Positions 42,470 through 45,604 of a stretch of DNA of 64,000 nucleotides are shown piece after piece. The position numbers and the translations under genes are program-made. Numbering within the stretch: position 1 is the first letter of the stretch; each line of letters opens with the position of its first letter. The DNA comes from an uncultured Pseudomonadota bacterium. GTDB lineage: Bacteria; Desulfobacterota; Desulfobulbia; Desulfobulbales; Desulfocapsaceae. The notes under the pieces are model-generated. The model saw nothing but the letters and a program-made list of their open reading frames with translations, was not told the DNA's origin and made no database searches. The stretch spans positions 46,651 through 110,650 of the forward strand of contig CAVZOB010000011.1 in the NCBI GenBank assembly GCA_963776835.1. Reading direction: 5' to 3'.

Positions 42470-42829
42470 ATGAGTGATGAGAAAGAAGTTATAGGGCAGA
42501 CAAGCCTGGAAGTTCTGGCAGGAAACGCACCAGACCTCTCAACCATTGCTTTTTTATCAAAAACACTTGCCGACGAAAATCGGCTACGCATTCTGCTGTC
42601 ATTACGAGCGGGAGAAAAATCAGTCTCAGTTGTTGCTGGGGAGCTTGAACTTTCGCAGCCCCTTATCTCACATCATCTGAAAGAATTACGCAGAGCTCTC
42701 CTGGTGAAGGTTGAACGAAGAGGGCCATTTGTGTATTACTCAATTTCTGATCCCCGCATCTTGGACATTATGGATAGCCTTCGTCACGTCGGGAAAGAGT
42801 TGCTCGCCACACAAACCATATTCAAATGA
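42470..42829 (+). CDS. ArsR/SmtB-family transcriptional regulator
   Basis: The HTH region is LADENRLRILLSL...VSVVAGELELSQPLISHHLKELRRALLV. Confidence 0.9.
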   Translation: MSDEKEVIGQTSLEVLAGNAPDLSTIAFLSKTLADENRLRILLSLRAGEKSVSVVAGELELSQPLISHHLKELRRALLVKVERRGPFVYYSISDPRILDIMDSLRHVGKELLATQTIFK

Positions 42830-43287
42830 GTATCAATATGTCTGATCTTACAACTATGATAACTACCATGGAACCAGCGGAGGCGGTACGGCAACTGAAA
42901 CCTCTACTCAAAAATCTTCTGCCTCACCTCGACAAGGAAGAACGTTTATCCTTCATTGCATCCCTGTCCGGTGATCCCGACGACGACAAAACAACAAGTC
43001 TCGTCCACCTCTGACTGGCTGAATGCATGGACGAAGGTGTCGATCCAACAAAAATGTGTCAGAGTTTGGTGCATAAGGTAGCGCAGTCGAAACAGCTTAT
43101 GGCGGTCACCGACCCTGCTCTTTTAGTGCTGTTTGAATCCTGGCTTGATGAGCTGGAATATGAGGCGCTCAGCTTTATGAAACAGCACCCCGAGGCCAGT
43201 GCTGTTGACCTGACGGACAATCTCGGGTTGTCACGAAGCGGTGCTGCCTTTGTCCTTGCAAAACTCGCTCGGGAAGGAAGGCTCTAG
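42826..43287 (+). CDS. Candidate selenoprotein (153 aa if TGA 43012-43014 is read as Sec); otherwise two small ORFs
   Basis: ORFs 42826-43014 and 43027-43287 are in the same frame and separated only by TGA plus four sense codons (L-A-E-C). The second ORF has no RBS. A SECIS-like hairpin lies 13 nt after the TGA. The ATG overlaps the arsR stop (ATGA), and Sec-selD is the next gene. Confidence 0.45.
43028..43047 (+). promoter_or_regulatory. Candidate SECIS hairpin
   Basis: TGGACGA-AGGTG-TCG(A)TCCA is a 7-bp stem with one bulged A and a GGU-containing loop. It starts 13 nt after TGA 43012-43014. Confidence 0.4.
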
Positions 43288-43396
43288 GTCGACAGATTGA
43301 ATACGAGTCCTATGCCGAACGGTCAATGTCACTAAGAAGAGAAAATCTCTGCCTAAACGTTGTCAATTACCCCTAACACAAACAGGAGGATGCACC

Positions 43397-44449
43397 ATGG
43401 AATTGTTCAAGAAGAAAACTCTCACTGGCCTTTCACGCACCTGCGGTTGAGCGGCAAAAATCGGTCCGACGGCTCTGTCGGACGCACTTGAAGGTCTTCC
43501 CAAACCAAACGATCCGAACCTGTTGGTAGGCATCGAGACAGCAGACGATGCGGCAGTCTACCGCCTCTCAGATGAGATCGCCATGATCAACACGGTTGAT
43601 TTCATCACCCCGCCAGTGGATGACCCGTATTGGTTTGGGCAAATTTCAGCCGCCAACTCTATTTCAGATGTCTATTCCATGGGAGGGCGCCCGGTCACCG
43701 CGCTGAACTTGGTCATGTTTCCCTCTAAACTCCTGGACATGGGGATGTTGAGAGACATTTTACGCGGAGGCCATGACAAAGTCGTTGAGTCTGGTGCCTG
43801 CTTGGTGGGTGGCCATTCCGTGGATGATGAAGAACCAAAGTACGGGCTATGCGTCAATGGGGTTGTGCATCCTAACCGCATTATCACCAATTCCGGAGCG
43901 CGTGTAGGTGATGCTCTCATCCTTACTAAGCCGCTTGGTTCGGGCGTGCTTTTCAATGCAACGAGATCGGGAAAGTTCCCTTTCGCGGAGTTAGAACGGG
44001 AAATTCTGCCCATTTTAGCGTCGCTGAACGGTCCGGCAATGGTGGCTGCGCTTAAGTTTGATCTCCACGCCTGTACCGACATCACTGGTTTCGGTGTTTT
44101 AGGACATCTTCTTGAAATGGCCCACGGCTGCAATCGAAAAATCGTCGTGCAGTACAAGGCACTGCCTTTCTTCCCTGGTGCATTGGAGATGTATAAAAAG
44201 AAAGAAACCACCGGCAGCAACAAAGCAAACCGCGCCATGGTTGGGAAGCATCAATTTCTACAGGCGGTTTCTCTTGCTGAACACGAAGATGAACTGCTCT
44301 ATGATCCCCAGACCTCTGGTGGACTTGTATTGGCAGTGCCTGGAGCCCAAGCAGGGTCCTTGCTTGCTGCTCTTCACGAGGCAGGGGTTAAGTCGGCTGT
44401 CCGCATCGGAGAGGTGGTAGACGAACCCGTGGGTCTTGATCTGGTATAA
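43397..44449 (+). CDS. selD: Selenide, water dikinase SelD, selenocysteine-containing (TGA at codon 18)
   Basis: ATG 43397 is preceded by AGGAGGA. The N-terminus MELFKKKTLTGLSRTCG-U-AAKIGP places Sec where E. coli has Cys17, with the Lys three residues later. The rest is the track ORF 43523-44449 (ETADDAAVYRL..., GGHSVDD...). Confidence 0.9.
43464..43483 (+). promoter_or_regulatory. selD SECIS hairpin
   Basis: GTCCGAC-GGCTCT-GTCGGAC is a perfect 7-bp stem starting 13 nt after TGA 43448-43450. Confidence 0.65.
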
Positions 44450-45239
44450 CGCGGTGAGCATCTACGCCGTGGTGGCGGTCCTTGGTCTTGTTGCTGGATT
44501 CCTCTCGGGGTTGCTTGGTATCGGTGGCGGCATCATTATGGCCCCACTCTTGCTCTATGTTCCCCCGTATTTTGGATGTGAGCCGCTACCCATGAAAGTG
44601 GTAGCGGGACTCACTATCGTCCAAGGGCTTGCGGCCTGTCTTTCAGGAGTGATAGCTCATAGGCGGTTTCACTTCGTTTCAGGTGGACTTACTGCCTGGA
44701 TGGGCTGCACCATTTTCCTTGCCGCCCTCATAGGTGGTGCCGGGGCAAAACACGTCACAAACCAAGTGCTCCTGATCATCTTTGCCTTGATGGCTTTTGT
44801 AGCAGCCGCGTTGCTTTTGTTGGTGCCAACCCGTACCGATAGTGATGCCCCTGACTTGGCGCAATTCGTCTTCAGCCGTTTGAAGTCAGTTACTGTTGCC
44901 GGGACGGTAGGTCTCCTGGGTGGGTTGGTGGGTCAGGGCGGCTCTTTTATTCTTATTCCTCTCATGACCTCTTTCATGCAAATCCCAACCCGAATTGCTA
45001 TTGGCAGTAATTTGGGCATTGTATTTCTTGCCTCCCTCGCAGGCTTCATCGGCAAGGCTATTACTGGTCAAATCGTCTGGTTATTAGCCCTGCCAATTGT
45101 CGTTGCCGTAATTCCAGCGGCGCAGATGGGTGGTTTCTTAAGTCGCCGCGTGCCGGTGGCTGGCTTAAGAATACTACTCGCCTGCTGTATCGCTCTTGCA
45201 GCGGTGCGTATTGGGTTTTCGGTGTTGACGGCTGGGTAA
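44436..45239 (+). CDS. TauE/SafE (DUF81) family anion exporter-like membrane protein
   Basis: Multi-TM protein with LGLVAGFLSGLLGIGGGIIMAPLL and a second GGLVGQGGSFILIPLM repeat. TTG start at 44436 overlaps the selD end; GTG 44454 is an alternative. Confidence 0.8.
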   Translation: MIWYNAVSIYAVVAVLGLVAGFLSGLLGIGGGIIMAPLLLYVPPYFGCEPLPMKVVAGLTIVQGLAACLSGVIAHRRFHFVSGGLTAWMGCTIFLAALIGGAGAKHVTNQVLLIIFALMAFVAAALLLLVPTRTDSDAPDLAQFVFSRLKSVTVAGTVGLLGGLVGQGGSFILIPLMTSFMQIPTRIAIGSNLGIVFLASLAGFIGKAITGQIVWLLALPIVVAVIPAAQMGGFLSRRVPVAGLRILLACCIALAAVRIGFSVLTAG

Positions 45240-45283
45240 GGAGATTGGTTTTCTCCAAGTAACGAACTGACAAGGGGAATAAT

Positions 45284-45604
45284 ATGATAAAAATCCATTT
45301 TTTTATGAATGAACCAAATGGCGGACCTTGAAAGCATTTCAACAAGATGCTGTCCAGGTTGGACGGTAAGTACAACATTGGCATCAAGATAACTTCCCGG
45401 CCCAAGGCTGAGTATATCACTGATGAGTATTTCGCCCTTGATCTCCCTGTTGCTCCAGCGATTATGGTTGACGATGAAATCGTCACCGAAGGCAAAGATA
45501 TTGATGACCATACAGTTGAAGCCGCTATCTGTCGACATCTAGGGCTGCCGGAACCCGAATTGAAAAACAGGCACCAAATCCTCGGGAAATTGTTCGGGAA
45601 ATAA
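45284..45604 (+). CDS. Candidate small selenoprotein, thioredoxin-fold-like (106 aa, TGA at codon 16)
   Basis: ATG 45284 has a strong AAGGGG RBS. The reading frame runs MIKIHFFMNEPNGGP-TGA-KHFNKM... into track ORF 45347-45604, whose own ATG lacks an RBS. A beta-strand-then-loop position of U and a later PAIMVDDEIV resemble Thioredoxin_3-type proteins. A hairpin with an AGGTT loop follows. Confidence 0.5.
45350..45366 (+). promoter_or_regulatory. Candidate SECIS hairpin
   Basis: CTGTCC-AGGTT-GGACGG is a 6-bp stem including one G-U pair. It starts 18 nt after TGA 45329-45331. Confidence 0.35.

Follow-up and report, generated by a model that had tools for sequence, protein, structure and literature searches.

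The locus described here lies in a stretch of 64,000 nucleotides (the window) from an uncultured bacterium of the Desulfocapsaceae, the assembly of which comprises 12 contigs and is about 90% complete. A model-generated note made from the letters of the window (the earlier note) had reported five same-strand genes between positions 42470 and 45604. They are indeed present and intact, on the plus strand, in the order tsoR-tsoA-selD-tauE-tsoC. Three of them belong to the Tso system, or "three selenoprotein operon" (Haft & Tolstoy 2025, mSystems 10:e0141724, as listed in PMC13188914). The two others, coding for a selenophosphate synthetase and a permease, stand in the slot that is filled by TsoB in other genomes. 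The genes are as follows, with U denoting selenocysteine (Sec).

42470-42829, plus strand: tsoR, ArsR/SmtB-type regulator of 119 residues, no cysteine (NF045707, PF01022).
42826-43287, plus strand: tsoA, LULAxC selenoprotein of 153 residues; U63 encoded by the TGA at 43012-43014; C67 and C78; C-terminal domain resembling a helix-turn-helix (HTH) (NF045695).
43397-44449, plus strand: selD, Sec-type selenophosphate synthetase of 350 residues; U18 encoded by the TGA at 43448-43450; second selD of the genome (TIGR00476).
44454-45239, plus strand: tauE, TauE/SafE (TSUP) permease of 261 residues, of a selD-linked subfamily (PF01925).
45284-45604, plus strand: tsoC, NEPxGxxU selenoprotein of 106 residues; U16 encoded by the TGA at 45329-45331; thioredoxin fold (NF045708).

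The Tso proteins are defined by four NCBIfam models: NF045707 (TsoR), NF045695 (TsoA), NF045694 (TsoB) and NF045708 (TsoC). TsoR scores 140.5 bits, for a cut-off of 115. TsoA, the "LULAXC motif selenoprotein", scores 206.3 bits (cut-off 170) with the motif HL-U-LAEC, and TsoC, the "NEPxGxxU motif selenoprotein", 136.3 bits (cut-off 45) with the motif NEPNGGPU. A 2026 review lists TsoA, TsoB ("rhodanese/DsbD fusion-like selenoprotein", with a UxxxxU motif), TsoC, TsoX and TsoY (PMC13188914), the last two being accessory to the system. As the NCBIfam equivalogs and this review already name TsoR, TsoA and TsoC, the scaffold of the cluster has been described. The ArsR-type gene and the two small Sec open reading frames (ORFs), which the earlier note took as parts of a module built around selD, are therefore parts of Tso. 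The same note knew of no described operon of such composition; this does not hold for the scaffold, and apparently holds for SelD-TauE in the TsoB slot, no description of which was found in a literature search that did not cover the primary Tso paper. No tested function of Tso was found in the literature searched, in which the system is known from comparative genomics only.

TsoB was not recognized in the source genome, where the best match to NF045694 reaches 31.5 bits for a cut-off of 805 and a tblastn search with a canonical TsoB returned weak fragments only. TsoY was not found in this genome, at its completeness of about 90%. TsoX had no match there either, and the control query likewise matched nowhere. 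With three of the four Tso proteins present (TsoR, TsoA and TsoC) and TsoB missing, the cluster was filed as a variant of the Tso operon. It retains the gene order, the strand, the translational coupling of tsoR to tsoA, the Sec positions, the Sec insertion sequence (SECIS) elements and the upstream palindrome. It differs in that the TsoB slot is occupied by a Sec-containing SelD and a TauE permease, SelD being the third selenoprotein. By its score with TIGR00476 (347.5 bits, cut-off 125), SelD is classed as a bona fide selenide, water dikinase; its loop TCG-U-AAK displays the expected Sec followed by Lys. The permease matches the Pfam TauE model only (PF01925, 134 bits, cut-off 32.6).

The earlier note had also seen three in-frame TGA codons followed by hairpins at 13–18 nt, and had read them as Sec codons in selD and in the two small genes. 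Comparison with homologues bears this out. Exactly one in-frame TGA is found in every TsoA above the threshold (30 of the 401 genomes of the phylum), and the TGA of TsoC falls in the same alignment column in 27 of 27 sequences. Because of this conservation, the TGA codons of the window are more than chance occurrences. The hairpins are the following.

43028-43047, plus strand: SECIS hairpin of tsoA, with a bulged A and a near-invariant AGGUG loop.
43464-43483, plus strand: SECIS hairpin of selD, 8 base pairs.
45352-45364, plus strand: SECIS hairpin of tsoC, GUCC-AGGUU-GGAC.

The TGA codon and the hairpin are 13 nt apart in tsoA and selD, and 18–20 nt apart in tsoC. In the tsoA stem, 97.7% of the cells of the alignment are paired over 37 distinct sequences, versus 10–43% in controls where the pairing partner was slid. 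One pair covaries (AU in 23 sequences, GC in 13, GU in 1), an Asp/Gly replacement being coupled there to a synonymous change. The A, G and G of the AGGUG loop are invariant, and its last two bases are present in at least 90% of the sequences. The stem-loop GCCC-AGGUU-GGGC of tsoC is retained in 27 sequences, among which the hairpin of the window is the sole fully compensated variant, with a U-A pair. The 8-bp hairpin of selD has counterparts at an identical offset in 13 homologues, which together with the TGA in TCG-U-AAK and the TIGR00476 score makes the window SelD a Sec-type enzyme, as the earlier note had it. The source genome has a tRNA-Sec (C11:14362-14459) alongside two selD genes. The presence of tRNA-Sec, selD and hairpins about 11–20 nt 3' of the UGA, with an apical loop containing G or U, is what SECIS-dependent insertion of Sec calls for. 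Gene callers would be expected to split tsoA, selD and tsoC of this genome at their UGA codons.

The Tso context was examined at 37 other TsoA loci from 34 genomes of the phylum, with about 8 kb on each side, on which the proteins of the window and a canonical TsoB were mapped. TsoB follows TsoA in 24 of the 37 loci, and is mostly followed in turn by TsoC, giving the canonical order R-A-B-C. The canonical TsoB (577 residues) combines a signal anchor and a periplasmic double-Sec rhodanese (motif YUAGLTU) with a DsbD membrane domain (DsbD_TM) and with a thioredoxin domain. In the window, SelD and TauE (about 1.85 kb) fill the exact slot that TsoB (about 1.75 kb) has elsewhere. A selD gene was found within about 8 kb of TsoA in none of the 37 loci. 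The linkage of the flanking ORFs to selD in other genomes, on which the module of the earlier note depended, is thus contradicted for three of the four flanking genes.

Other arrangements were encountered. TsoA is directly followed by TsoC, with no TsoB between them, in L054 and G401:C36. Four loci, all from one family (f22), have the order TsoR-TsoA-DsrE-TauE. Genomes of the same order as the source genome have TsoR-TsoA-TsoY, and also TsoY-TsoR-TsoA-GDT1. TsoR-TsoA is therefore the constant core of the system, and the membrane partner varies.

Some further features of these loci were recorded. TsoY (NF047643, about 420 bits) lies beside TsoR-TsoA in same-order genomes at L042:8977-10044 and L051:9232-10194 (minus strand). 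In one case, a GDT1/UPF0016 cation antiporter stands with TsoR-TsoA in place of TsoB and TsoC (L051:7426-7986, minus strand). A TsoC paralogue of about 91–106 residues with a C-x3-U motif (N[DE]PCG..U) occurs in tandem with an ordinary TsoC in several canonical loci (L043:5492-5809, L046:10217-10495, L047:5942-6214 and L059:3702-3986). This paralogue could represent an unnamed subfamily, or else belong to the "adjacent unrelated selenoproteins". Two loci of genome G051 (L043 and L044) hold four TsoA genes between them; each has a tsoR-tsoA tandem duplication ahead of a canonical tsoR-tsoA-tsoB-tsoC.

The origin of the selD-tauE pair was traced with both of its proteins. The second selD of the source genome (C2:300504-301541) also codes for a Sec enzyme (AAG-U-AAKLGPG), which is 45% identical to the SelD of the window. 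The latter has 48–50% identity with the SelDs of the same order, and 73–78% with those found in four genomes of other families, where a TauE with 64–66% identity to that of the window follows each selD. SelD-TauE was also found in Geopsychrobacter sp., Geothermobacter hydrogeniphilus HR-1 and a Deltaproteobacteria metagenome-assembled genome (MAG), in a TauE search of named genomes. The SelD tree joins the C2 copy, presumably inherited vertically, to the same-order SelDs (support 100/99). A 100/100 split separates it from the window copy, which falls inside the clade of TauE-adjacent SelDs. The closest relative of the window SelD (83% identity, sister with support of 98) comes from the MAG "Desulfobulbaceae bacterium STD1_110", where it forms a SelD-TauE pair that stands alone. 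As the trees place the window SelD apart from the same-order SelDs, they favour a non-vertical origin of its gene. The GC content is 51–55% in selD-tauE and 45–48% in tsoR, tsoA and tsoC, a contrast that is suggestive only as a sign of horizontal transfer.

The TauE subfamily was found in 21 of the 401 genomes of the phylum, with 19 loci at 40% identity or more outside the source genome. It adjoins selD, in either order, in 14 of these 19 loci, so that the tie between a TauE-like permease and selD proposed by the earlier note extends to other genomes. Four of the remaining loci are the TsoR-TsoA-DsrE-TauE loci, and one has neither neighbour. In the tree of TauE proteins, that of the window branches within the selD-adjacent members (95/96), and the Tso-linked TauEs of the f22 family form a separate clade (100/100). 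Since the two fall in separate supported clades, the association of Tso with TauE arose at least twice. The pair of the window resembles the other selD-TauE pairs (PF01925, TC 2.A.102), as its SelD and TauE are nested in the paired clades and the two trees are congruent. Elsewhere, these pairs are found alone or with a TlpA-like protein, TetR or ispDF, whereas that of the window is set between tsoA and tsoC, its selD being a second copy with a stop codon almost touching the tauE start. No paper linking TauE to selD was found in the literature search, and a metagenome scan with TauE returned a single, uninformative contig of 1.2 kb. The cysteines of the TauE subfamily were considered as selenium ligands and this was rejected, since no cysteine is invariant.

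The junctions were described in the earlier note as short or overlapping. This is so for tsoR and tsoA, which overlap by 4 nt (ATGA), and for selD and tauE, which are separated by 4 nt with the GTG start codon at 44454, to which the orthologues align, and would overlap with the alternative TTG at 44436. The spacer of 109 nt between tsoA and selD is not really short; a search in it for homology to a promoter or untranslated region of donor type revealed no more than the ribosome-binding site. The gap between tauE and tsoC is 44 nt. No convincing terminator was found within the cluster or 3' of tsoC. The elements upstream of tsoR are listed below.

42115-42146, plus strand: terminator-like hairpin with a T-run, which closes the upstream gene (41129-42064) and sets the 5' boundary of the unit.
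42356-42361, plus strand: TTGACA, a -35-like hexamer before tsoR.
42370-42399, plus strand: imperfect 13-4-13 palindrome TCAATATATTAAC-GTCT-GTTTATATGTTGA directly 3' of TTGACA, candidate operator of TsoR.

About 25 other loci have TTGACA and then a palindrome of the ATATAAA...TTTATAT type ahead of tsoR. The palindrome of the window is probably the operator of the family, to which TsoR would be predicted to bind. A fuzzy-palindrome search of the genome for further TsoR operators was abandoned: it gave 45 matches versus about 20 in shuffled sequences and missed the site of the window, the pattern being too AT-rich and unspecific. The N-terminal domain encoded by the upstream gene is of the DVU0772 family (NF045682, 98.6 bits); with the terminator between it and the tso unit, this gene seems unrelated.

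A second view of the 3' half of the cluster is provided by STD1_110, a MAG that is possibly a mixture of strains. A short contig of this MAG, which begins inside tauE, has DNA 85% identical to positions 44572-45819 of the window. It codes for TauE (91% identity), TsoC (81%), a NapH/MauN-like protein and an ArsP-type permease. The homology ends at 45819, next to a usp gene and two tyrosine recombinase genes of the window.

45608-45819, plus strand: frameshifted stub of a gene for a NapH/MauN-like 4Fe-4S membrane protein, intact after tsoC in the related MAG (L109).
46294-48292, minus strand: two tyrosine recombinase genes (46294-47193 and 47093-48292), beyond the end of homology to the related locus.

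The NapH-like gene was probably truncated by the action of the tyrosine recombinases. It could then be argued that the whole arrangement is a functionless accident, a mobile-element rearrangement having dropped selD-tauE into a decaying tso locus, all the more as the recombinase genes and the truncated, frameshifted gene lie immediately downstream and the full gene order is seen in a single genome. This appears highly improbable. The five genes and their SECIS hairpins are intact, and a palindrome of the canonical operator type is retained. Moreover, the ratios of nonsynonymous to synonymous substitution rates (dN/dS) between the window and the relative that retains the junction are 0.11 for TauE and 0.17 for TsoC, at dS of 0.4–0.6. 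Purifying selection has therefore maintained the TauE-TsoC junction. A third STD1_110 locus, L144 (G401:C36, 5471-9770), has the order TsoR-TsoA-TsoC-orf89-TauE (41% identity)-DsrE2-like-flavoprotein, the last being a pyridine nucleotide-disulfide oxidoreductase. This oxidoreductase has weak matches to the model of the type III sulfide:quinone oxidoreductase (SQR) selenoprotein and to that of the "N-terminal to SelD" oxidoreductase, TIGR03169.

The structures of the small proteins were predicted with AlphaFold2. The TsoA model (predicted local distance difference test score, pLDDT, of 81) is all-helical, with U63 and C67 one turn apart. These two residues are invariant, and C78 is present in at least 90% of 33 sequences, with the spacing U-x3-C-x10-C. 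In a fold search, the N-terminal Sec domain of TsoA had no match in the PDB, and only the C-terminal 42–47 residues, which form a three-helix unit, matched HTH domains, with non-significant E-values of 0.2–1. The TsoC model is a confident one (pLDDT of 89) and shows a thioredoxin fold. U16 stands at the N-terminal end of its first helix, the position of the CxxC motif in thioredoxins. The best PDB matches of TsoC are thioredoxins (E-value of about 2e-3, template modelling score of about 0.5), and ArsD (3mwh) is also among the matches.

Some of these features would suit a system that senses or detoxifies soft metals and metalloids (As, Sb, Hg, Cu and others), in which selD-tauE would be a passenger: an extra selD, and perhaps the uptake of selenium, would come under the repressor of the operon and so secure selenophosphate for its selenoproteins. 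The U-x3-C-x10-C triad of TsoA resembles three-ligand As(III) sites, and TsoR belongs to the ArsR/SmtB family of metalloregulators. The metallochaperone ArsD is among the fold matches of TsoC, genes for a NapH-like protein and an ArsP/SO_0444-type permease come next in the related locus, and arsC lies near one f22 locus, as read from the ORF sequence alone. Selenoproteins of the transporter type are also mostly implicated in metal or metalloid resistance (PMC13188914). A comparison with the ArsR-ArsD pairing is instructive in this respect. In both cases an ArsR-type repressor is encoded with small proteins, here the thioredoxin-fold TsoC and the three-ligand TsoA. However, there is no membership at the sequence level, TsoC has a single Sec instead of the cysteine triad of ArsD, and ArsA and ArsB are missing. 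TsoR lacks the conserved sets of Cys and His ligands of the known metal-sensing ArsR proteins, and the rhodanese, DsrE and SQR-like flavoprotein partners are chalcogen-transfer proteins. A role in metal response would also leave unexplained why a TauE subfamily that usually adjoins selD joined Tso at least twice, once without selD. Such a role is considered unlikely.

A function in the handling of reactive sulfur (persulfide, sulfite or thiosulfate) was weighed against the same data. The operon would then be akin to those governed by BigR or CstR, with TauE exporting sulfite or thiosulfate, Sec residues serving as faster persulfide carriers, and the link to SelD being secondary. In sulfide-detoxification operons, TauE is a putative effluxer of sulfite or thiosulfate and the ArsR-type BigR senses persulfide (PMC7315123). 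The BigR/CstR operons, for instance that of Acinetobacter baumannii, are likewise headed by a repressor, of the ArsR or CsoR type, and include genes for TauE, rhodanese, persulfide dioxygenase (PDO) and SQR. Rhodanese, DsrE-like and SQR-like genes are present in Tso loci elsewhere. TsoR itself matches the BigR model, but weakly, with 43 bits for a cut-off of 155 (NF040642). BigR sensors are defined by a dithiol pair, C34/C100 in A. baumannii (PMC7315123), which is absent from TsoR: the window protein has no cysteine, and none is conserved across 37 TsoR sequences. TsoR is thus not assigned to the BigR-type repressors. The cluster differs further from the BigR/CstR operons in that it has no PDO, its small proteins all contain Sec, and its permease subfamily tracks selD, which it adjoins in 14 of the 19 loci, rather than PDO or SQR genes. 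That SelD scores as a bona fide selenide, water dikinase also speaks against a sulfur function. This function is regarded as distinctly unlikely.

The cluster is best explained as a mosaic Tso variant, controlled by TsoR, that would serve the trafficking of selenium, or of chalcogens more broadly; we hold this, on the basis of sequence comparison, with a confidence somewhat better than even. TsoR would repress a single transcript, tsoR-tsoA-selD-tauE-tsoC. The selenol/thiol triad of TsoA may be the ligand-sensing partner of the cysteine-free TsoR, or a selenium carrier. The TauE permease would carry inorganic selenium species across the membrane, in a direction that is here presumed, like the substrate. 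SelD would turn selenide into selenophosphate, and TsoC could shuttle or reduce protein-bound selenium. Together, SelD and TauE might substitute for the joint membrane passage and chalcogen transfer of TsoB. The case for a role in selenium trafficking is one of guilt by association, with three parts: selD lies inside the operon, the selD-linked TauE subfamily joined Tso loci independently, and the partners of Tso elsewhere are chalcogen-transfer proteins (rhodanese, DsrE-like protein and SQR-like flavoprotein). Selenium-loaded rhodanese reportedly can feed SelD in vitro (Ogasawara et al. 2001, PNAS), which would bridge the rhodanese of TsoB and SelD.

Several points weigh against selenium trafficking by a single TsoR-controlled unit. 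The full R-A-SelD-TauE-C order is documented once, and the TauE-TsoC junction is found in only one other genome, on the contig that begins inside tauE. The 109-nt spacer between tsoA and selD could hold its own promoter, nothing convincing having been found for or against it. The truncation of the downstream NapH-like gene means that part of the ancestral unit has been lost. The rhodanese, DsrE, SQR-like flavoprotein and TauE partners fit the handling of sulfane sulfur equally well. Finally, SelD-TauE may have been inserted into a TsoB-less core instead of replacing TsoB. As the membrane partner varies around the TsoR-TsoA core, the two routes cannot be told apart, and a clean replacement is not asserted, since TsoB-less TsoR-TsoA-TsoC cores exist (L054 and G401:C36).

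A stronger proposal is that Tso is a dedicated pathway for the acquisition and delivery of selenium, in which the selD-linked TauE would be a specific selenium transporter, TsoA a Sec-based sensor or carrier acting with TsoR, and SelD with TauE interchangeable with TsoB as a means of passing selenium through the membrane into the pathway. This is possible, and we regard it as doubtful. According to the 2026 review, a specific high-affinity system for selenium transport is not known from any prokaryote (PMC13188914). What is new in the window is the junction of the Tso scaffold with a selD-TauE pair. The exchange of TsoB for selD and a selD-linked permease would be a circumstantial but concrete hint at the function of Tso. 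The recruitment of the TauE subfamily by Tso at least twice lends independent support to the selD-linked TauE as a selenium permease.

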